Shown: piece after piece, positions 3,149 through 35,959 of the stretch
Position numbering within the stretch: position 1 is the stretch's first letter
Layout of the letters: the number at the start of each line of letters is the position of its first letter
Assembly: GCA_017503725.1 (NCBI GenBank)
Contig: JAFVSL010000005.1
Span: forward strand, 15,455 to 79,454
Origin: Alphaproteobacteria bacterium
GTDB lineage: Bacteria > Pseudomonadota > Alphaproteobacteria > Rs-D84
Direction: 5' to 3'
Length of the DNA: 64,000 bases
Made by a program: the position numbers and the translations under genes
Notes under the pieces: generated by a model
What the model saw: the letters and a program-made list of their open reading frames with translations, nothing else
Told to the model about the DNA's origin: nothing
Databases searched by the model: none

Positions 3149-3628
3149 TTAGTTGTTCATTGCACACGGTTCGGTAAATTCATATGTGCCGGGTGCGTCT
3201 GTAAATGATACGCCCGCCGGCGCGTACATTATGCAATCCCCCGCGGGATTTGATACCAAACACGATTCTGCCACCCCCACAGATACCATTCCAGACGGGC
3301 ACGTCGTCGCAATTGTGATTTGCGGTTCATCAATCGCAATATACCCCGATGGGCAATCTGTGGCGGGGCCATTATCCAAAACACACACACCGGCATCGCA
3401 TTTTAACCCACTGGCACAGGGTGGCACACCGGTGTAAACCGTCAGTGTGCTACTGGTACAGGTCTGGCCCAGTGTTGCCGCCGCCACACAGGTTGCCATT
3501 GATAGACCACTCGTTCGCAAACATACCCCAGAATCACATTGCGTACTGTATAAACAACTTTGACCATTTGCGAGCCCTGCAATCGCGGGTAACGGCATCA
3601 GTATAAACAAAAACATAATTCGTTTCAT
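3149..3628 (-). CDS. Family-A secreted Cys-rich protein, copy A1. Conserved C-terminal block CPSGYIAIDEPQITIATTCPSG...AESCLVS.PAG.CIMYAPAGVSFTD.PGTYEFTEPCAM.
   Basis: Signal peptide MKRIMFLFILMPLPAIAG. RBS AAGGTG. Paralogous to the ORFs at 24884..25156 and 34633..35118. Confidence 0.65.
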   Translation of the reverse strand: MKRIMFLFILMPLPAIAGLANGQSCLYSTQCDSGVCLRTSGLSMATCVAAATLGQTCTSSTLTVYTGVPPCASGLKCDAGVCVLDNGPATDCPSGYIAIDEPQITIATTCPSGMVSVGVAESCLVSNPAGDCIMYAPAGVSFTDAPGTYEFTEPCAMNN

Positions 3629-3637
3629 AGCAACACC

Positions 3638-4045
3638 TTAGTTGGACACAGTTGTAAACAGTGCGGACCGGAATTCGGCATCATCTCTAACAAGCTCTGC
3701 ACAAGCGAGTGAACAATTAGTAGCGCAAATGTAATCGTCATTGTCTTCAAAATTAGAGCTGAACCAGGATGAGACCGCTGGGCTAATCATACGACACCAG
3801 CAATAGTAACCTCCGCCATAATTTAAAAGTGTGTCTGATGTTTCTTTTACTGCCCCGGACGTACCAGTGCACAGTCCAATTCCTTTTATAGTTATATTGG
3901 AAGATTTTAGCGTCCATTCTGAATACTCGTAATCGTCGATATAAAAGTCGTTGTTATTCTCTGATAGCGCGACGCATCGTTGTACGGCCGTCGCGGGTGC
4001 GGCGAGTATCGCGCCAACCGCGGTTAAAGTTAAAAGTTTTTTCAT
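3638..4045 (-). CDS. Family-B secreted Cys-rich protein, copy B1. Signal peptide MKKLLTLTAVGAILAAPATA. Conserved YYCWCRM..P..SSW motif and C-terminal Cys framework.
   Basis: Start taken at the internal ATG 4045 with RBS AAGGAG 7 nt upstream. The six-frame ORF extends to 4093. Paralogs at 24412, 35566, 16461 and 15967. Confidence 0.65.
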   Translation of the reverse strand: MKKLLTLTAVGAILAAPATAVQRCVALSENNNDFYIDDYEYSEWTLKSSNITIKGIGLCTGTSGAVKETSDTLLNYGGGYYCWCRMISPAVSSWFSSNFEDNDDYICATNCSLACAELVRDDAEFRSALFTTVSN

Positions 4046-4205
4046 TTGTTCAATCTCCTTTCTTTGTTTTATTCGCGAAAAAACAAAAACCACCGAATAA
4101 ATTCAAGTGGTCAGGAGGTTAACGACAATCTAATAGAATTGTGCTGTTTATTCAATATATTCACAGCCCCCCTGACTTTTATATTCAGGAGTTGTCTTAT
4201 TCGAT
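4046..4205 (-). promoter_or_regulatory. Conserved ~150-nt 5' leader of the B/A cassette, copy L1. Mutually exclusive pairings CTCCTGA / GTCAGGRGG / CCTCCTGAC, a downstream hairpin plus T-run, then the RBS.
   Basis: Highly similar sequence sits upstream of B2 (24262-24411), B3 (35567-35722) and B4 (16486-16625), always in the same orientation relative to the gene. Confidence 0.6.
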
Positions 4206-4503
4206 ATTAAATCGAAAACTATTAGCACGGGTCGTTACACCCCATTATGGTAAAAACACCATAACAACTACATTATAACGGATTGTTTCCATTTGCGCAA
4301 TTGCAATGATAAATAAAAATTTAGTGGTGAGCCGTAAGTGGCTAGTGGATAGTGTTTGTGTGCGGCAAATGCCGCACATTATAGTGCCATCACTAACCAC
4401 TAATCACTAAGATAAACTTTTATTTATCTTAGCGTTTTCATATCACATATCTCTTGTCTCATATCTCATAAAAAATCCCGCCGGATGGCGGGATTTTTTA
4501 TCT

Positions 4504-15214: not shown

Positions 15215-15967
15215 TCATTCGTTACACGGCGCGCTGTACAGATATGTACCAACGTCATCAGAATATACATTCCCCGCGCGCGAATAAAGCCAACACGTCC
15301 CCAGGCCAGCATCACTTAGATGCGTTACTTCTTCGCACGCTGGCGCCGTCCCCAAACTCGCCTTACACGTTCCGTATGACGACGCGTCATAGTCCCTAAA
15401 AATCAAGCCCTGGCGTTCAATTGCAAGCCCACCAAGTCCAGACGGCGCCTCGTCTGGGAACATCTGGTCTTCTATGTCACTGCCACGATATGTCATCCAT
15501 TTGTTCATTTCTGTAAAAAGATACATACCAAGAGTTTGCTTCTCTAATATGCTAGCTTTGCACGCATATGCGCAATTATACATACATGAATCCAAATCAG
15601 CGCTTGTATCCGCCCCCGTTTTTTCTGGAAACCACTGTGTCGCATATGGGCGTATCATTTTACACCAACAATAATTACCCGTTTGTGTGGGCGCCGCAAG
15701 ATGTTTCGCAAATGTACTCATACTTGTGAATCTCGTCGACGAACACGCTGAAATTATTCTGGCATCTGTAAGATATGTATTTACAGAACCAGCAACCGTG
15801 AAACTATGATGCGACGGCCAAATCGATGCTCCAACTGTATAAGTGTCATTTGCCGTCCAACCAAATGCCGTATTCCCAAGAAAATCGGACCCAATTGACA
15901 CTTGGGTAATCGATGCCGCAAATGCGGGTTCTAATACCAACATATATAATATAAATATTTTCTTCAT
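15215..15967 (-). CDS. Family-B secreted Cys-rich protein, long variant, copy B5 (NYCWCKMIRP...W motif)
   Basis: Signal peptide MKKIFILYMLVLEPAFAAS. Contains the YCWCKM motif. Lies immediately downstream of B4 in a tandem arrangement. Confidence 0.6.
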   Translation of the reverse strand: MKKIFILYMLVLEPAFAASITQVSIGSDFLGNTAFGWTANDTYTVGASIWPSHHSFTVAGSVNTYLTDARIISACSSTRFTSMSTFAKHLAAPTQTGNYCWCKMIRPYATQWFPEKTGADTSADLDSCMYNCAYACKASILEKQTLGMYLFTEMNKWMTYRGSDIEDQMFPDEAPSGLGGLAIERQGLIFRDYDASSYGTCKASLGTAPACEEVTHLSDAGLGTCWLYSRAGNVYSDDVGTYLYSAPCNE

Positions 15968-15987
15968 CTTTTATCCCCCCTATATCC

Positions 15988-16461
15988 TTAAAACGCCTCA
16001 AACGCACCAAAAATCTTGCCACGAAAATCTGATGATGTTACCATATAGCTTGCACAATCACGCGCACAATTTGTCACACACTCCAACGCCGAAGTATAAA
16101 GAGTATTAGCCGGCAATCTAACATAACTAGATAAAACTGGTTCGGTCATCTGGCACCAACAATACTTATGCACACCACCCGTCGCGTTTTTCAATGGTCC
16201 CACCGACGGAGACCCCGAAGCCACCGTTGAACAATGTCCATACATCATAACCGCAACATTTTCGCCCGTATAGGGCAGTGTGCATACCACCCCATGTTTA
16301 TACGCGTATTGGCTAAAATACGAATATGCACTTGAATGCACACACGTTGTTTGCGACGCCAGATCTGCTCTGAACGGTGAACAAATATATGACCGCGTTG
16401 GCGTGGCAGCATTCGCAGACAAAACGCCCCCAATTAAACAAAAACATAAAAATCTTTTCAT
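15988..16461 (-). CDS. Family-B secreted Cys-rich protein, copy B4 (KYCWCQMTEP..SSY motif)
   Basis: Start at the ATG 16461 (MKRFLCFCLIGGVLSANA) with RBS AGGAGAAAGG. Preceded by conserved leader copy L4. Confidence 0.6.
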   Translation of the reverse strand: MKRFLCFCLIGGVLSANAATPTRSYICSPFRADLASQTTCVHSSAYSYFSQYAYKHGVVCTLPYTGENVAVMMYGHCSTVASGSPSVGPLKNATGGVHKYCWCQMTEPVLSSYVRLPANTLYTSALECVTNCARDCASYMVTSSDFRGKIFGAFEAF

Positions 16462-16485
16462 TTTCCTTTCTCCTGTTGTTATCAA

Positions 16486-16625
16486 TCCAACGCACCCGCG
16501 TCAGATAATCAAAAACCACCATTCATCAGGTGGTCAGGAGGTTGGAAACAATCATCGGAATTGTGTCGCTTATTCAATATATTCGCAACCCTCCTGACGA
16601 CAAATATCAGGAGTTTAAATTTACC
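16486..16625 (-). promoter_or_regulatory. Conserved B-cassette leader, copy L4
   Basis: Contains AACTCCTGA...GTCAGGAGGGTTGCGAATATATTGAATAAGC...AACCTCCTGACC in the mRNA sense. Confidence 0.55.
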
Positions 16626-16807
16626 GTCCGCAAGACAGATATCCATTGCGAACGCCGATGCACGGGTTTCCACACCCCATTATGACAAAAACCGCCATAA
16701 CAAGTATATTATAGCGAATTCTTTCAACTTAGGCAAATACTAAGATAAGTAAAAATTATGTCCCGAAAAATAAAAAATTTTGTAAATAATCCACCCGGCG
16801 GGATTTT

Positions 16808-19722: not shown

Positions 19723-22119
19723 TTATTTTTTCACAACAAAGTTTACCAATTTTTTCGGGACAACAATTGTCTTGATAATCGTTGCGCCATCTAACTTGGC
19801 ACCCAATGCACTTTTTGCCATTTCAACCAATGCATCGTCGGCCACGTCCGCCGGCGCAACAAATTCTGCACCACGTTTACCGTTAACGGACGCAACAATT
19901 GTCATTTCGGTCTCAACCAGTTTCGCCGCATCAAATGTTGGCCAATCTGACAACGCCAGCATTTCATCGTGTCCCAATTTTTCCCACATTTCTTCGGTCA
20001 AATGTGGTGCAAATGGATTTAACACCCGAACCAGCGTTTCGTACGCCGCCCGCGGCATACCACCCGAAAATGCATTGATATATTCCATCATCGCAGAAAT
20101 CGCCGTGTTAAATTTCATATTTTCAACGCGCTCTGTCACATCCGCAATCAATTTATGCATCAAACGTTCTTGGGTCGCGGTCATTTCATCGCCCGTCAAA
20201 TTATCAGACATATTTTCTACACGTTTCAAGAAACGCTGAACCCCGGCCAGTGCACCATCGGTCCATACCGCGTTATTTTCCCACGGCCCCAGTGACAACA
20301 CCGAAACACGCCCCGCATCAGCCCCAACAGAATCAACCAAATCCGCCACCATAAAACCATTCCCACGCGACTTGGACATTTTATACCCATCATTACCCAT
20401 CAACAGTCCCTGGGCCGTACGCTTTGCGTATGGTTCCGGTGTATTAACCAATCCCAAATCATACAATGCGTGATGCCAGAAACGCGAATAAATCAAATGA
20501 CGTGTGTTATGCTCGTGTCCACCGTTATAGTGTGTAACCGGCATCCAATTTTCCATCTGCTGGCGCGAACAAAATTCTTTATCATTCTTTGGATCCAGAT
20601 ACCGTAAATAATACCACGATGACCCCGCCCATCCCGGCATAGTATCCGTTTCACGTTTTGCAGGCGCCCCACAATGTGGACACGTTGTATTTACCCAATC
20701 GGTTGCACGGGCCAGGGGCCCTTCGCCATCATCGGTTGGTTTATAGTCCACCATATATGGTTGCATAATCGGCAATTCAGATTCATCAACCGGTACCCAG
20801 CCACATTTTTCACAATAAACCATTGGGATTGGTTCGCCCCAATACATCTGGCGTGAAAAACCCCAGTCTTTTAATTTATATTTTGTTGTGCCACGTGCAA
20901 AGCCGTGTTCCGTACCATATTTAATTGCGGTGGCAATGGCTTCTTCTTTGCCCATACCGTCCAAGAAGGATGAATTTATATGCGCACCGTCGCCTTCCCA
21001 AACTTTATCAGGTTCACCACCGGCCAAAACCGGGATAATTTCCAAACCGAATTTCTTGGCAAAGTCCCAGTCACGACCATCGTGCGCCGGCACCGCCATA
21101 ATTGTCCCATACGCATAATCAACCAATACATAGTCCGATGTGAACACAGGGATTTCTTTGCCGGTATATGGATTCAATGCCATTATACCCTCTAAACGCA
21201 CACCCGTCTTTTCCTTGGTCGCGTCTGTCCGTTCAATCTCAGATTTTGCGGCAGATTCCTTGATATACGCACGTACCGCATCCGCGTTTTTAATTTTACC
21301 TTCGTCCAGCCATTTTGCCAACAACTTGTGTTCCGGGGCAATTACACAGAACGTCACACCAAATATAGTATCTACACGCGTCGTATAAACCGTCATAACA
21401 TCATCCCCAACACGGAAATCAACATCCGCGCCGTGCGATTTACCAATCAGGTTTACCTCATCTTTTTTAATACGTTCATCAAAATCAACATCTTTTAAGC
21501 CGTCTAATAATTTATCGGCATATTTAGACAACGCCAAATTCCACTGAACCTTCATTTTCTTTTCGACCGGCCCGTGACAGCGTTCACAACAACCATCTTC
21601 TAACTCTTCATTTGTCAGGTTTGTTTTGCACGCCGGGCACCAATTCATCGGCAGGGCAGATTTATACGCCAACCCCGCCTTGTAAAACTGAATAAACATC
21701 CATTGTGTCCATTTAACATATTCCGGGTCAGACGTTGCAACACGTGTTTCCGGACTGACCGACCAACCAACACGATCAATCATTTTTGAATATGCTTCTA
21801 TCAATTCCTTTGCAACGTCTGCCGGATGGCGTCCAATCTTGGTGGCATAGTGTTCACCGGCAATCCCCATTGCATCAAAACCCATTGGGAACAAAACATC
21901 ATATCCACGTGCACGACGAAACCGGGCCAAAACATCGATTCCCGAATAATTCATCATATGTCCCGCGTGCATCCCGGCACCGGACAAGAACGGAAATTCC
22001 ACCAACGTGTAAAAACGTGGTTTCGAACCATCATCTTTCGGTACAAACGCGCGTGCATCGCGCCAGCGTTTTTGCCATTTTGCCTCACGTTCGTGAATTT
22101 TTTTCATATCATCTGCCAT
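19723..22119 (-). CDS. leuS: Leucyl-tRNA synthetase
   Basis: Class I HMGH, the zinc-knuckle region NWCPACKTNLTNEE...CERCHGPV and KMSKS motifs. 798 aa. Confidence 0.9.
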   Translation of the reverse strand: MADDMKKIHEREAKWQKRWRDARAFVPKDDGSKPRFYTLVEFPFLSGAGMHAGHMMNYSGIDVLARFRRARGYDVLFPMGFDAMGIAGEHYATKIGRHPADVAKELIEAYSKMIDRVGWSVSPETRVATSDPEYVKWTQWMFIQFYKAGLAYKSALPMNWCPACKTNLTNEELEDGCCERCHGPVEKKMKVQWNLALSKYADKLLDGLKDVDFDERIKKDEVNLIGKSHGADVDFRVGDDVMTVYTTRVDTIFGVTFCVIAPEHKLLAKWLDEGKIKNADAVRAYIKESAAKSEIERTDATKEKTGVRLEGIMALNPYTGKEIPVFTSDYVLVDYAYGTIMAVPAHDGRDWDFAKKFGLEIIPVLAGGEPDKVWEGDGAHINSSFLDGMGKEEAIATAIKYGTEHGFARGTTKYKLKDWGFSRQMYWGEPIPMVYCEKCGWVPVDESELPIMQPYMVDYKPTDDGEGPLARATDWVNTTCPHCGAPAKRETDTMPGWAGSSWYYLRYLDPKNDKEFCSRQQMENWMPVTHYNGGHEHNTRHLIYSRFWHHALYDLGLVNTPEPYAKRTAQGLLMGNDGYKMSKSRGNGFMVADLVDSVGADAGRVSVLSLGPWENNAVWTDGALAGVQRFLKRVENMSDNLTGDEMTATQERLMHKLIADVTERVENMKFNTAISAMMEYINAFSGGMPRAAYETLVRVLNPFAPHLTEEMWEKLGHDEMLALSDWPTFDAAKLVETEMTIVASVNGKRGAEFVAPADVADDALVEMAKSALGAKLDGATIIKTIVVPKKLVNFVVKK

Positions 22120-22269
22120 AATTTCGTCCTATGTGTTATTAAAATTACCTTAACCCCCAGTTTATATTTCGCGCGCACATTATTCAAGTTTTTTTATACA
22201 GACACATAAAAAAATCTAGACTTTTTTTATTTTTCAATAAATACTTGTTACGGGGTGCATATATGCCCC

Positions 22270-22440
22270 GGACATAGTGATGTGGCTTTGGCTTAGAACA
22301 CCAAAACATTGAACGAAATGGCTACCACTTTATGTCCCGACCAAGCGGTCGGGATGTCGTTGCTCGCAAGACAACGAGGTCATCAATGTTTGACTGTTCT
22401 AACTCCCGACCACCACTTGCTATGGTGGTTTTTTTATTAC
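22270..22440 (+). promoter_or_regulatory. Structured leader upstream of the PAP2 phosphatase gene. Several hairpins ending in a strong intrinsic terminator (ACCACCA-CTTGCTA-TGGTGGT plus T7). Alternative pairing of GGTCGGGAT with two TCCCGACC copies.
   Basis: Read directly. GTCCCGACC-aagc-GGTCGGGAT is a perfect hairpin. A second TCCCGACC overlaps the 5' arm of the terminator. The terminator ends about 20 nt before the RBS. Confidence 0.5.
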
Positions 22441-22459
22441 AATCGAAAGGAAAGAAAAT

Positions 22460-23014
22460 ATGTCAAGACTTAGAACTCTTGTCGCGTTTTCTGTTTGCGG
22501 GGCATTGACCGCAAATGGTGCAATTGCGGGTGGACCTTTTTCATTTTCCAACCCGAATAAACTAAGCGATACATTTATGGTGATGACGGTGGCATACGCC
22601 CTGGGGCTAAGCAGTACCGAAGATAACTTTGACGGTGCCATTGAATTAGCCACCAGTATTGCCGGTGCCCAGATAGTTGCCGAAGGTATCAAGGCCCTTG
22701 AACTGGAACGCCGCCCGAATGGTTCCGATTGGAAATCATTCCCCAGTGGTCATTCCGCCGCCGCATTCAGCAGCGCAATGTTCGTCCACCGTCGTTACGG
22801 ATGGAAACCGGCAATTATACCATACGCAATGGCCGCGGTAACTGGTTGGGGCCGGGTACGTGCCGACGCGCACTATTGGCACGACGTCCTGGGCGGGGCG
22901 GCAGTATCTGCACTTTTTACCTGGATTGTTGTGGATAAATATGACGTGGCACAAAATATTACAGTTGCTGCCACCCCCGATAACATCCACGTCGGGTTCA
23001 AGACAGAATTTTAA
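22460..23014 (+). CDS. PAP2 superfamily phosphatase, secreted or membrane-associated
   Basis: Signature motifs KxxxxxxRP (ELERRPNG), PSGH (FPSGHS) and SRxxxxxHxxxD (RVRADAHYWHDV). Signal peptide present. Confidence 0.8.
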   Translation: MSRLRTLVAFSVCGALTANGAIAGGPFSFSNPNKLSDTFMVMTVAYALGLSSTEDNFDGAIELATSIAGAQIVAEGIKALELERRPNGSDWKSFPSGHSAAAFSSAMFVHRRYGWKPAIIPYAMAAVTGWGRVRADAHYWHDVLGGAAVSALFTWIVVDKYDVAQNITVAATPDNIHVGFKTEF

Positions 23015-24058: not shown

Positions 24059-24261
24059 GGGGCCCACCACCAAAATCCACACCGCCCATCCAGGCGGTGT
24101 TATTATTTATTTTTATTATTGTATTTTTTCTCTATACATTTTATAATCACGGTGTCAGCGGGATTTTCCACTGATGGGGTGTCAGAACCCGTACATAACG
24201 CGTTTGGAATCGAAATCCAGCGCGCCATTGGCGTGTTTTTTTCGTATCTGTCCAAACGATA

Positions 24262-24411
24262 AATAAAACTCCTGAACACATAGGTGTCAGGAGGGTTGCG
24301 AATATATTGAATAAGCACACAATTCGTTATGATTGTTCTGAACCTCCTGACCACTCGTTTATGCGCGGTGGTTTTTGTTTTTTCGCGAAAAACAATGAAA
24401 GGAGATTGAAT
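24262..24411 (+). promoter_or_regulatory. Conserved B-cassette leader, copy L2
   Basis: aaaactcctgaacacataggtgtcaggagggttgcgaatatattgaataagcacacaattcgttatgattgttctgaacctcctgaccactcgtttatgcgcggtggtttttgttttttcgcgaaaaacaatgaaaggag, then ATG. Confidence 0.6.
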
Positions 24412-24873
24412 ATGAAAAAACTTTTAATCTTAACCGCGCTTGGTGCGATTTTGACCGCGCCCGCAATGGCGGTACAAAAATGCGTACAGTTGCCCACAAA
24501 AGGCTCAGGTTGTTCTTTTAGCAGCAGCTCTTTCAGCATTGAAATACCCATAAGCTGCAGTGCTGCTGGGATATCTATGAAGGCTATAGCGTTGTGTGCT
24601 TCTGCTTATGCTGACAAAGGAGGCGTCGTATCAGCAGGCTTAGTCGCAAACACAATAGATGGGGAAACTATGTCTTATGGTCCCTACTATTGTTGGTGCA
24701 AACTTGTTCAGCCAGTTGAATCAAAGTGGGTATTGGCTTCTAGTACAAGCAACGACGAATTCAGTTCCTGTTCTTATTCCTGCTCCCAAAAATGCGCCGA
24801 AGCGATGCGGGCCCCTAAAGATGTTGAACTTGATATCTGGCCAATAATGCTGGAAAATTTATTAGTTGATTAA
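24412..24873 (+). CDS. Family-B secreted Cys-rich protein, copy B2 (PYYCWCKLVQP.ESKW)
   Basis: Start at ATG 24412 (MKKLLILTALGAILTAPAMA) with RBS AAAGGAG. Confidence 0.65.
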   Translation: MKKLLILTALGAILTAPAMAVQKCVQLPTKGSGCSFSSSSFSIEIPISCSAAGISMKAIALCASAYADKGGVVSAGLVANTIDGETMSYGPYYCWCKLVQPVESKWVLASSTSNDEFSSCSYSCSQKCAEAMRAPKDVELDIWPIMLENLLVD

Positions 24874-24883
24874 GGTGGCGGAT

Positions 24884-25156
24884 ATGAAACGAATTATATT
24901 TTTATTGTTGTGTATGCCAGGGTTGGCGCACGCCGCCGCCCCCAGTACCACTTGTCCATCTGGATACATCGCCATAAACGAACCTGCCATTACAATTGCA
25001 ACCACGTGCCCCAGTGGCACAATTTCGGTTGGCACGGCGGAATCGTGTTTGGTGGAAAGTCCCGCGGGGGATTGTATAATGTACGCGCCGGCGGGTGTCA
25101 GTTACACCGACAGTCCCGGCACATATGAATTTACCGAACCGTGCGCAATGCAGTAA
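24884..25156 (+). CDS. Family-A secreted Cys-rich protein, copy A2, short form of 90 aa
   Basis: MKRIIFLLLCMPGLAHA signal peptide, then the conserved block CPSGYIAINEPAITIATTCPSG. RBS AAGGTGGCGG. Terminator at 25157-25185. Confidence 0.65.
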   Translation: MKRIIFLLLCMPGLAHAAAPSTTCPSGYIAINEPAITIATTCPSGTISVGTAESCLVESPAGDCIMYAPAGVSYTDSPGTYEFTEPCAMQ

Positions 25157-34632: not shown

Positions 34633-35118
34633 TTATGACATTGGACACGCACCTGTAAATTCATACGTGCCTAGTGTGTCTGTAAATGATACGCCCGCCG
34701 GCGCATACATTATACACGACCCCGCGGGACTGGATACCAAACACGATTCCGCCGTACCAATGGCGGTTGTGCCACTGGGGCAATTGGTCGCGATGGTGAT
34801 TTGTTCTTCATTTATTGCAATGTAACCTGATGGACAGGTATCTATTGCATTACAAAGACCGTTTTGACATATCAAACCACTGGCACAAGGTTTTTCCGTA
34901 TCAAGATAATAACCTATATCTCCTACTTTTGTTCTACAGGATTCTCCAAGGACGGCGGGCGCTGCACAATACCTCAATAATTCGCCACTTTTTTGTGAAC
35001 ATACCAGCGATGCGCAATCTCTGTTCGCTATGCACTGTTCACCATTGGCCAGTTCGCCTTGTGCAGCCGCATACGCGACAATCGGTACAAGCATCAATAA
35101 AAATATCAATCGTTTCAT
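34633..35118 (-). CDS. Family-A secreted Cys-rich protein, copy A3
   Basis: Start at ATG 35118 (MKRLIFLLMLVPIVAYA) with RBS AAGGGG. Carries the conserved block CPSGYIAINEEQITIATNCPSG. Confidence 0.65.
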   Translation of the reverse strand: MKRLIFLLMLVPIVAYAAAQGELANGEQCIANRDCASLVCSQKSGELLRYCAAPAVLGESCRTKVGDIGYYLDTEKPCASGLICQNGLCNAIDTCPSGYIAINEEQITIATNCPSGTTAIGTAESCLVSSPAGSCIMYAPAGVSFTDTLGTYEFTGACPMS

Positions 35119-35128
35119 TCGCACCCCC

Positions 35129-35566
35129 TTAATTGGCCAATGAACCAAACAGCGCGGACCGGCACTCGGAAACGCTCTGGGCGTAGTACGCACAGCTGTA
35201 CGAACAGGAGTACACGCAAAAACTGGCGGACGAAACCGCGCCGAGATACACCCAAGACGACACGGCCGGCTCGACCATTTTGCACCAGCAATATTTATTG
35301 GTCGTATCCGATGAGTCGCTTACCGTTGTAATTGCATCCGATGTGCCATATGTTGCGTCCGCTTTTTGATTTGAGCACATCGCAATTCCCTTAATCGGGA
35401 CACTGGTACCATTCGTTGTACACGTCGCGGACCAATCCGCATTCCCCGCCGTCGGTGTCGATGTACATGTCGTGCTTGATGCGTCCAGCGCCACGCATTT
35501 CTGGACGGCGGTGGCGGGTGTGGCGAGTATCGCACCAATCGCGGTTATTGTTAAAAGTTTTTTCAT
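35129..35566 (-). CDS. Family-B secreted Cys-rich protein, copy B3 (NKYCWCKMVEPAVSSW)
   Basis: Signal peptide MKKLLTITAIGAILATPATA. RBS AAAGGGAG. Confidence 0.65.
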   Translation of the reverse strand: MKKLLTITAIGAILATPATAVQKCVALDASSTTCTSTPTAGNADWSATCTTNGTSVPIKGIAMCSNQKADATYGTSDAITTVSDSSDTTNKYCWCKMVEPAVSSWVYLGAVSSASFCVYSCSYSCAYYAQSVSECRSALFGSLAN

Positions 35567-35722
35567 CTGTTTACTCCCTTTCTTTTGTTTTATTCGCGAA
35601 AAAAAACAAAAACCACGCGCATAAACGAGTGGTCAGGAGGTTAGTAACAATTATAAGGAATTGTGTGCTTATTCAACATATTCGCAACCCTCCTGACACC
35701 TATATGTTCAGGAGTTTTTATT
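35567..35722 (-). promoter_or_regulatory. Conserved B-cassette leader, copy L3
   Basis: Near-identical to L2 in the mRNA sense, including the U-run hairpin (cactcgtttatgcgcgtggtttttgtttttttt). Confidence 0.6.
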
Positions 35723-35959
35723 TGTCATTTGGATTTCATACGAAAAAACACGCCATATGGCGCGCCCGGTTCAGGATCTTTCGTTGTTTTATCCAGACGC
35801 CTTATATCGGGTTACTACACCCCATTACAACCATCGGTTATAACAAACAAATTATAACCAAATATTTCATCAAACGCAACGACGAAGATAAATAATTATG
35901 TATTCCTCCACTAACCACTTACACTAATCACTAAAAAATCCCGCCGAATGGCGGGATTT

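Follow-up and report, generated by a model that had tools for sequence, protein, structure and literature searches.

The stretch of DNA analysed here comprises 64,000 nucleotides (nt) of contig JAFVSL010000005.1 from an alphaproteobacterium of the Rs-D84 lineage, and this whole stretch is referred to below as the window. It contains an intergenic region that separates leuS (19723-22119, minus strand) from a divergently oriented PAP2 gene (22460-23014, plus strand) and that hosts a structured leader element upstream of the latter gene. An earlier note on this DNA had proposed that the region carries a riboswitch or attenuator with alternative terminator and antiterminator pairings. The PAP2 gene, presumed to be the regulated one, encodes a protein of 184 amino acids (aa) with a signal-like N-terminus that matches Pfam family PF01569 (E = 3e-15). 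The NCBIfam model closest to this protein is that of the lipid A 1-phosphatase LpxE, yet the match is far below the LpxE cutoff. Its last residues, ...NIHVGFKTEF, form an alternating pattern that finishes with Phe, much like the C-terminal signature seen in outer-membrane proteins, and they are conserved, with F184 invariant (alignment A2).

A promoter-like site, TAGACT-17 nt-AATACT, can be read from the sequence on the plus strand (22217-22245), with a predicted transcription start near G22252. Both hexamers and their spacing are retained across the related PAP2 loci L005-L011. A generic sigma-70 scan did not report this site, and we regard it as a putative promoter. The leader element lies after this site and before the ribosome-binding site of the PAP2 gene, and neither reading of the sequence nor the sigma-70 scan revealed a promoter-like site in the interval between the T-tract at the end of the element and the ATG.

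The element occupies about 22252-22435 on the plus strand, as do all its parts described below. Folded with ViennaRNA, the 168-nt stretch has an energy of -60.8 kcal/mol against -40.8 +/- 3.9 kcal/mol in 200 dinucleotide shuffles (z = -5.15); the structured region flagged earlier is thus real, although the element is larger than the extent given for it. At its 3' end is an intrinsic terminator (22409-22435), formed by ACCACCA (22409-22415), the loop cttgcta and TGGTGGT (22423-22429), and followed by T residues up to 22435. The terminator scan called 22408-22430 as a hairpin of eight pairs followed by T7, which qualifies as an intrinsic terminator. Between the end of the T-run and the ATG (22460) lie 24 nt, and the ribosome-binding site AAGGAAAG follows the T-run after about 12 nt, a spacing that had been put at 20 nt. 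Sequence, ViennaRNA and terminator scan agree that the three hairpin or terminator elements and the T-tract exist as the earlier note described them.

Two mutually exclusive folds of the leader RNA

Central to the leader are three segments. Seg1, GTCCCGACC (22334-22342), and seg2, GGTCGGGAT (22347-22355), are separated by the loop aagc and form the hairpin P4 (22334-22355), which has nine pairs, one of them G-U. Seg3, CTCCCGACC (22403-22411), is a copy of seg1 and can pair with seg2 (22347-22354) instead. It shares 3 nt with the 5' arm of the terminator and is complementary to GGTCGGGA, as had been pointed out from the sequence. Around these segments, two complete structures can be drawn. Fold A consists of the long-range helices P1 and P2, which close a junction bearing P4 (seg1:seg2) and P5, leaving seg3 unpaired and the terminator hairpin free to form. 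Fold B consists of H1, H4, P5 and seg2:seg3, and the last of these helices sequesters the beginning of the terminator 5' arm.

In fold A, the P1 5' strand TTAGAAC (22293-22299) pairs with the P1 3' strand GTTCTAA (22396-22402), which is supported by covariation, and the P2 5' strand AAACATTGA (22304-22312) pairs with 22383-22391. In fold B, H1 (22287-22305) pairs TTTGG (22287-22291) with CCAAA (22301-22305) around a loop that contains the P1 5' strand, and H4 (22378-22395) pairs GGTCA (22378-22382) with TGACT (22391-22395) around a loop that is the P2 3' strand, TCAATGTT. Since the strands of P1 and P2 lie in the loops of H1 and H4, respectively, with no linkers, folds A and B are mutually exclusive. 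The hairpin P5 (22357-22377; TCGTTG-C-TC-GCAA-GA-CAACGA) is common to both folds and has a GNRA tetraloop; its stem pairs TCGTTG (22357-22362) with CAACGA (22372-22377), to which ViennaRNA adds UC/GA around GCAA, with one bulged C.

The 5' end of the element can take part in further pairings. A clade-specific hairpin, GGGGTGCATATATGCCCC (22252-22269), lies ahead of a GACA start at 22271. In its place, CAAGGGCagacatGCCCTTG is found in L010 and different hairpins are present in L045 and L049; loci L014-L022 have no 5' hairpin, and a promoter-like site identified there by eye sets the start at GACA. The 5' tail that follows, GACATAGTGATGTGG (22271-22285), can pair with the loop and 5' arm of the terminator, an interaction that we call P0, and also with the ATGTC at the start of seg1 (H0). 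In P0, the tail, written as CATAGTGA..GTGG, pairs through 22273-22280 with 22417-22424 and through 22282-22285 with 22413-22416. Thus, besides the hairpins and the alternative helix that had been listed earlier, the leader contains P1, P2, H1, H4 and the pairing between 5' tail and terminator, all of which had been missed.

A single cross-subtype MAFFT alignment (A4) had register errors, and two fold-specific covariance models were therefore used: R1, built from PAP2 leaders on fold A, and R2, built on fold B. Where possible, each fold was tested on the alignment fitted to the opposite fold. The sequences come from related metagenome-assembled genomes, so that counts of pair changes do not represent independent events. 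For fold A, 87.4% of the cells were paired on its own alignment, with changes on both sides in 26 of 29 pairs (slid controls 30-48%), and on the R2 alignment, fitted to fold B, the corresponding values were 88.6% and 18 of 21 pairs (slid controls 23-50%). The seg2:seg3 helix of fold B is the best-conserved helix of the element: on the fold-A alignment, in which seg3 was unmodelled, 99.2% of its cells were paired and six of its eight pairs showed compensatory changes, against 26-59% in slid controls. The alternative pairing next to the terminator that the earlier note had suggested is therefore borne out by comparison.

The individual helices behave in the same manner. P1 changed on both sides in 7/7 pairs on the fold-A alignment and in 6/7 on the R2 alignment, with variants such as TTGAAC/GTTCAA, TTAATC/GATTAA and CTTACTAAC/GTTAGTAAG, and P2 did so in 8/8 pairs on both alignments. 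P4 was paired in 91% of the cells, with both-side changes in four of its six pairs, and seg1, seg2 and seg3 change together (TCCCGAC/GTCGGGA, TCCTGAC/GTCAGGA and CTCCAAC/GTTGGAG). Every pair of the P5 stem (6/6) and of H4 (5/5; alignment A8) changed on both sides, the H4 variants being AGTCA/TGATT, GGTTA/TGACC, ACAAT/ATTGT, ACTAT/ATAGT, ATTCA/TGAAT and AATCAT/ATGATT. Support for H1, which joins the G-run to ACC(C), was taken from constrained folds of each sequence instead of from column counts: it is predicted in about 27 of 32 fold-B-constrained folds (structures read by eye), with the variants GGGT/ACCC, GGGC/GCCC and GGACT/AGTCC. Covariance scores were 100-155 bits on the sense strand and at most 33 bits on the reverse strand, and many of the pairs are G-U. 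Base pairing in fold A or B explains nearly all conserved nucleotides; the invariant positions (invariant list of A4) lie almost wholly in the helices of the two folds, and the conserved unpaired positions are the P5 tips, which are specific to each subtype. As judged by comparison of related sequences, we have shown here that the leader RNA has two mutually exclusive folds and that both are maintained in evolution.

Linkage to PAP2 and a wider family of leaders

PAP2 homologues were aligned and used to fetch 75 genomic loci. The close loci (L005-L058) are mostly labelled Candidatus Enterousia or uncultured (Alpha)proteobacteria; Candidatus Enterousia belongs to the order Rs-D84, and the gut-dwelling members of this group have genomes below about 1 Mb (PMC12306168). 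Other metagenome contigs carry an identical PAP2 protein together with an identical intergenic region. In 36 of 54 related loci, the element was found by BLAST or covariance model immediately before the PAP2 gene, and in dozens of other genomes the paired segments are preserved through compensatory substitutions, so that the check by conservation and covariation proposed earlier came out in favour of the structure. PAP2-linked elements end 19-31 nt before the start codon wherever the start codon was matched, and all those listed have a hairpin and a T-run at the position of the terminator. Among the loci in which the element precedes PAP2, leuS is adjacent in six, is 3 kb away in two and is not present within 5 kb in the rest, and several PAP2 loci that do adjoin leuS have no element.

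Locus L011 is informative in this respect. Its PAP2 protein is 76% identical to that of the window, leuS is divergent and the TAGACT-17-AATACT site is kept, and the entire element is missing, as if it had been lost by a natural deletion or had never been acquired. The promoter-like site of L011 directly precedes the PAP2 ribosome-binding site, about 20 nt from the start codon. Because the element follows PAP2 while its upstream neighbour changes, and given the arrangement in L011, we conclude that the leader belongs to PAP2; as far as the arrangement of signals goes, PAP2 would be expressed only by read-through of the leader terminator. The possibility that the terminator serves the upstream gene was ruled out, as leuS is divergent and has its start at 22119.

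A recurring motif, (T)TATTCCTAT(TTAG), was observed in the spacer of promoter-like sites of PAP2 genes with or without the leader (loci L012, L013, L017, L033, L034, L037, L039, L046, L054 and L057). It is located about 30-110 nt upstream of the PAP2 start or of the leader, and may be the binding site of a regulator or a piece of a promoter that is not of the sigma-70 type.

The element is not confined to PAP2 genes. In a census of the 64-kb window and of loci no longer than about 15 kb, four further copies were found in the window. Copy 2 (4084-4260, minus strand) scored 56 bits with R1 and 75 bits with R2 (E = 3.8e-13), is preceded by a promoter TTGCGC-17-TATAAT and lies upstream of an operon of Cys-rich secreted proteins (3638-4093 and 3149-3628, minus strand). 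Copy 3 (16510-16696, minus strand; R2, 75.7 bits, E = 2.8e-13) precedes an operon of Cys-rich secreted proteins with a YCWC motif (15988-16485 and 15215-15967, minus strand). Copy 4 (24172-24376, plus strand) was matched by R2 over its 3' two-thirds (38.8 bits) and by eye over the rest, and has a large insertion in P3; downstream are the genes for a YCWC protein (24412-24873) and a second protein (24866-25156), both on the plus strand. Copy 5 (35606-35845, minus strand; R2, 46.4 bits) has the promoter TTGCGT-17-TATAAT and a P3 insertion like that of copy 4, and is followed by the genes for a YCWC protein (35129-35566) and a second protein (34633-35193), both on the minus strand. Both folds are predicted for copies 4 and 5. 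The P3 insertions of these two copies each contain a terminator-like hairpin with a T-run, GCGCGCCAttGGCGTG followed by T7 in copy 4 (24220-24242, plus strand) and GCGCGCCAtaTGGCGTG followed by T6 in copy 5 (about 35765-35743, minus strand), which could be a second, internal attenuation point or the remnant of an inserted element.

Beyond the window, R1 and R2 searches found additional copies in loci L010, L017, L028, L029 and L049, and a scan for the seg1/seg2/seg3 pattern followed by a model filter gave at least six metagenome members among the 80 loci listed. Two of the metagenome matches, L151 (ERZ1026780.1 NODE-1, 935,024 bp) and L089 (589,899 bp), lie on what appear to be near-complete single-contig genomes of the lineage. 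Every one of the 48 R2 matches and six metagenome matches is in the sense orientation relative to the next open reading frame (ORF). The inspected copies that are not linked to PAP2 lie 16-58 nt before an ORF, except for L049:8546, which is separated from the next ORF by about 370 nt. A hairpin and T-run close each member inspected (as judged by eye for the non-PAP2 copies), and several copies have a good TTGnnn-17-TATAAT site just 5'.

Four subtypes (types I to IV) can be distinguished, which share one architecture: a tail or hairpin, a G-run, the P1 5' strand, ACC(C), the P2 5' strand and an optional P3 in the 5' half, and P4, P5, the P2 3' strand, a short linker, the P1 3' strand, seg3 and the terminator in the 3' half. 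The window PAP2 leader is of type I, with a GNRA loop on P5, and subtypes II-IV have at the P5 tip either an extended arm whose A-rich internal loop is conserved or the loop GAATATATTGAATAA. The other four copies of the window are type IV-like. Their seg2 is G/AGG-rich (GUCAGGAGG in three of them and GUCAGGGGG in that at 4084-4260), and their seg3 is the anti-Shine-Dalgarno-like CCUCCUGAC, compared with GGUCGGGA / UCCCGACC in the PAP2 leader. The terminated product of the type IV-like copies is predicted to expose CCUCCU before the terminator, and may have an effect in trans on ribosome-binding sites.

The genes downstream of the element fall into a few groups: PAP2, the four Cys-rich operons of the window, other Cys-rich secreted proteins, and one protein of 187 aa that resembles outer-membrane proteins and ends in ...RCKF. 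The four window operons (3149-4093, minus strand; 15215-16485, minus strand; 24412-25156, plus strand; 34633-35566, minus strand) are paralogous two-gene units for small Cys-rich proteins with signal peptides. The first product is a protein of about 135-160 aa with a YCWC(K/R/Q)M motif, and the second ends in ...CPSGYIAI...TEPCAM or is another YCWC protein. No convincing Pfam or NCBIfam family was found for these Cys-rich proteins, for which one marginal match to a colipase N-terminal model (28.8 bits) was obtained. All complete downstream ORFs begin like exported proteins, with the exception of a doubtful ORF of 74 aa in L049 and the ORF that follows L049:8546, neither of which has a signal-like N-terminus; in L149, the contig stops before the downstream gene. 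These matches indicate that the leader is a member of a multi-copy family, and is therefore not PAP2-specific: the assignment to PAP2 made in the earlier note holds in that the element tracks PAP2 and not leuS, but not in the sense of a leader exclusive to this gene.

A probable conformational attenuator and its alternatives

We consider it probable that the element is the cis-acting 5' leader of the PAP2 mRNA and functions as a conformational transcription attenuator, as one member of a bistable family present in Enterousia/Rs-D84 relatives. According to this model, transcription would stop at the T-tract (22430-22435) when fold A forms and continue into PAP2 when fold B does, with some effector setting the ratio between the two outcomes. 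The choice would be made during transcription, since only a few kcal/mol separate the two folds at the point where seg3 emerges. In transcripts ending at seg3, folds A and B differ by 0-10 kcal/mol, in most cases by less than 8 kcal/mol, and in 12 of 41 leaders fold B is as stable as fold A or more so. Folding of growing transcripts predicts that a 5' domain (H1 and H0) forms first and persists until the P1 3' strand has emerged; the formation of fold A therefore needs a rearrangement, which is a kinetic partition that an effector could bias. The ground state of the full leader in subtypes II and IV is fold A plus the terminator, and the assignment of fold A as off and fold B as on is well motivated for these subtypes.

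For the window subtype, type I, the direction of the switch is uncertain, because P0 can remove the terminator in either fold and because the ACCACCAC repeat permits a terminator of 6 bp. The P0 pairing is maintained by co-variation in subtypes I and III and is missing from II and IV, and the duplexes between a leader's own tail and its own terminator (-11 to -17 kcal/mol in types I and III) are better than cross pairs. P0 may reinforce antitermination by stacking on seg2:seg3; alternatively, it may close or protect the 5' end of the finished leader, a role that a local 5' hairpin could fulfil in subtype IV.

Several observations weigh against the attenuator model in this form. The full-length minimum-energy fold of types I and III is fold A plus P0, in which the terminator hairpin is absent, and for the window leader this structure amounts to -60.8 against -57.7 kcal/mol. 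The ACCACCAC repeat allows a slipped 6-bp terminator, ACCACU/GGUGGU, to coexist with seg2:seg3, and hence seg2:seg3 alone may be insufficient to block termination in the window. Seg3 overlaps the terminator by 3 nt in the window leader and by 1-3 nt in type IV, and in L014-L022 it covers 4 of 6 bp. In the window subtype, fold A could also give read-through, and the off state might in fact be a fold composed solely of local elements (H0/H1, P4, P5, H4 and the terminator). The column count for H1 is weak, at 73.7% paired with register shifts between subtypes. Finally, no conserved ligand pocket is visible in the alignments, which argues against a classical metabolite pocket and would be unusual in a metabolite riboswitch. 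Thermodynamics alone does not give the on/off direction, as P0 and the slipping terminator confound it. The earlier description of a terminator/antiterminator arrangement is accordingly upheld as to the existence of two conserved, exclusive folds, but has to be qualified, given that in the window the overlap is only 3 nt and a 6-bp slipped terminator avoids seg3; likewise, a conserved bistable leader with a terminator is present, while the term riboswitch sits uneasily with the near absence of conserved unpaired nucleotides.

It should be noted that the attenuator model allows for different effectors. A small ligand or ion, which would make the leader a true riboswitch, is a tentative first choice, and an RNA-binding protein, or no effector at all other than transcription speed, Mg2+ or growth rate, are each somewhat less likely. 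The conserved tips of P5, with their GNRA or A-rich motifs, point to tertiary docking or to protein binding.

The same attenuator might be switched by an RNA-binding antiterminator protein, comparable to PyrR, TRAP, BglG or ANTAR proteins, an explanation that we hold to be rather unlikely. The absence of conserved unpaired pocket nucleotides across subtypes would fit such a protein, the motifs at the P5 tip (the GNRA loop, ATAYAATA...GAAA and GAATATATTGAATAA) are possible sites for it, and a leader common to several operons fits a regulon governed by one factor. However, no candidate regulator gene adjoins any copy, although no search aimed at regulators was made, and the motif that the other four copies of this genome carry in the P5 loop is missing from the type I PAP2 leader, so that no common site is apparent. 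The small size of the genomes (<1 Mb; PMC12306168) also speaks against it; judging from this size, the Rs-D84 gut symbionts presumably carry few protein regulators.

It is improbable that the element is an independent gene for a trans-acting small RNA (sRNA), with its own promoter and terminator and with PAP2 being transcribed separately. In favour of this alternative, which the earlier note had itself raised, with a promoter-like site and a strong terminator each termination event would release a separate transcript of about 165-185 nt, the minimum-energy structure of the full leader is a closed rod whose ends are paired as in stable sRNAs, and type IV seg3 presents a single-stranded, anti-Shine-Dalgarno-like CCUCCU right before the terminator. 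Yet the gap between T-tract and ATG is just 24 nt and has no promoter-like site, the same promoter stands directly before PAP2 in L011, the sense orientation and near-fixed distance to the downstream ORF hold throughout the family, and the element tracks PAP2 through changes of the upstream neighbour. Moreover, a second conserved fold that removes the base of the terminator would be purposeless in a simple sRNA. The terminated product of the leader may nonetheless play a part in trans.

We attach still less weight to the possibility that the leader is a divergent member of a known RNA family (cyclic di-GMP (c-di-GMP) riboswitch, M-box, T-box, 6S RNA, or a structure like transfer-messenger RNA (tmRNA) or tRNA). 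Its multiple copies before genes for surface or secreted proteins and its GNRA-capped helix in a three-way junction recall c-di-GMP-I riboswitches, and GGTCGGGA...TCCCGACC-ACCA superficially looks like an acceptor stem followed by ACCA. A search of the whole window against Rfam 15 at the gathering score returned six tRNAs only. Relaxing the threshold to E <= 10 for 22100-22480 gave sRNA-Xcc1 as the best match, at chance level (22.7 bits against a gathering score of 53; E = 0.12), and at E <= 5 no match in the window overlapped any of the five copies. As the earlier note had asked for this comparison, it can be stated that no Rfam 15 family matches the leader. ARAGORN found six tRNAs elsewhere in the window, no tmRNA, and nothing at the leader. 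A tmRNA, tRNA-like, 6S or signal recognition particle RNA, prompted by the acceptor-like arrangement and the rod-like fold, was discarded on these ARAGORN and Rfam results. No ORF with a GGDEF motif was found in 0.64 Mb of sampled lineage DNA, a weak test since the loci are redundant. Searches of the literature on Enterousia and on PAP2 RNA motifs brought up no account of the element, and the corresponding search for Rs-D84 was uninformative.

A DNA-level repeat without RNA function, such as a miniature inverted-repeat transposable element (MITE), a REP-like element or a recombination site, can be rejected with little reservation: there are at least five copies in 64 kb, with direct (seg1, seg3) and inverted (seg2) repeats, but the widely diverged copies keep their pairing through compensatory and G-U changes on the sense strand only, the reverse strand scores far lower, all copies keep one orientation and a set spacing to the start codon that follows, and no terminal inverted repeats or target duplications were noticed on reading the copies, for which no dedicated search was made. 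Least credible of all is a ribosome-mediated attenuator of the trp type, in which a leader peptide over seg1 would choose between 1:2, 2:3 and 3:4 pairing: seg1:seg2, seg2:seg3 and the terminator do mirror that classic scheme, and an ATG at 22332 opens an ORF of 58 codons across seg1, but this ATG has no Shine-Dalgarno sequence, L014-L022 have TTG (ATATTGTCC) in its place, likewise without one, other subtypes have no ORF at seg1, and P4 loop and linker lengths vary by non-multiples of 3 (aagc, cacaca, ccaaaac, ttct), so that the reading frame is not kept; the frame-breaking indels and the lack of a ribosome-binding site led us to reject it.

Comparison with known systems places the proposed conformational attenuator in context. 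Riboswitches of the c-di-GMP-I and -II classes occur in many copies per genome before genes for surface, secreted or exported proteins and have a GNRA-capped helix in a junction. Like the leader, they are multi-copy, structured 5' leaders with a 3' strand that competes, or in the leader would compete, with an intrinsic terminator, and they are the closest known system in copy number and gene association; the leader differs from them in that it has no Rfam match and no visible conserved unpaired pocket nucleotides, and in that it is dual-coded nearly throughout, whereas riboswitches combine an aptamer with a short expression platform. With trp-type attenuators, the leader shares three segments with exclusive pairings, a third segment that overlaps the terminator 5' arm, and a presumed decision during transcription, but it has no conserved leader peptide or ribosome site, and P1, P2, H1 and H4 switch as well. 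The M-box (ykoK) riboswitch and the Salmonella mgtA leader are long leaders that toggle between sets of stem-loops to control termination, and genes for the remodelling of lipid A or the envelope are typical targets of low Mg2+. The window leader resembles these in its alternative stem-loop sets and in preceding a PAP2 gene nearest to LpxE (below cutoff), and is unlike them in that Rfam gives no M-box match and other members precede genes for Cys-rich secreted proteins. In Bacillus subtilis pyrG, an antiterminator is formed by the 5' end of the transcript, which is added by reiterative transcription. Types I and III similarly have a 5' tail complementary to the terminator 5' arm (and, in the leader, its loop; P0), but here the 5' sequence is template-encoded, is part of a far larger switch and is missing in types II and IV.

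In summary, on the evidence of sequence comparison, the leader belongs to a new family of putative conformational attenuator leaders that is almost fully dual-coded and serves multiple operons for exported proteins in a reduced genome. This family is not in Rfam 15 and would be an addition to the short list of conformational attenuators, with both alternative folds visible by covariation, which is rarely so clear. It is conceivable, and we propose it tentatively, that the family constitutes a new class of regulatory RNA, either an orphan riboswitch or an effector-free kinetic switch, with a regulon that covers much of the exported proteome in the reduced-genome gut symbionts of Rs-D84. If true, the regulon would span many operons, at least five per 64 kb here. 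Should the leaders have a ligand, its identity would reveal a signal of importance to the Rs-D84/Enterousia organisms; if there is none, the leader would be a natural RNA switch of a purely kinetic kind, and could serve as a compact template for the design of synthetic bistable leaders. In either case, the leaders may coordinate the expression of envelope and secreted proteins in uncultured gut Alphaproteobacteria with genomes below 1 Mb, and the secreted proteins so regulated possibly form the interface with host or partner cells.

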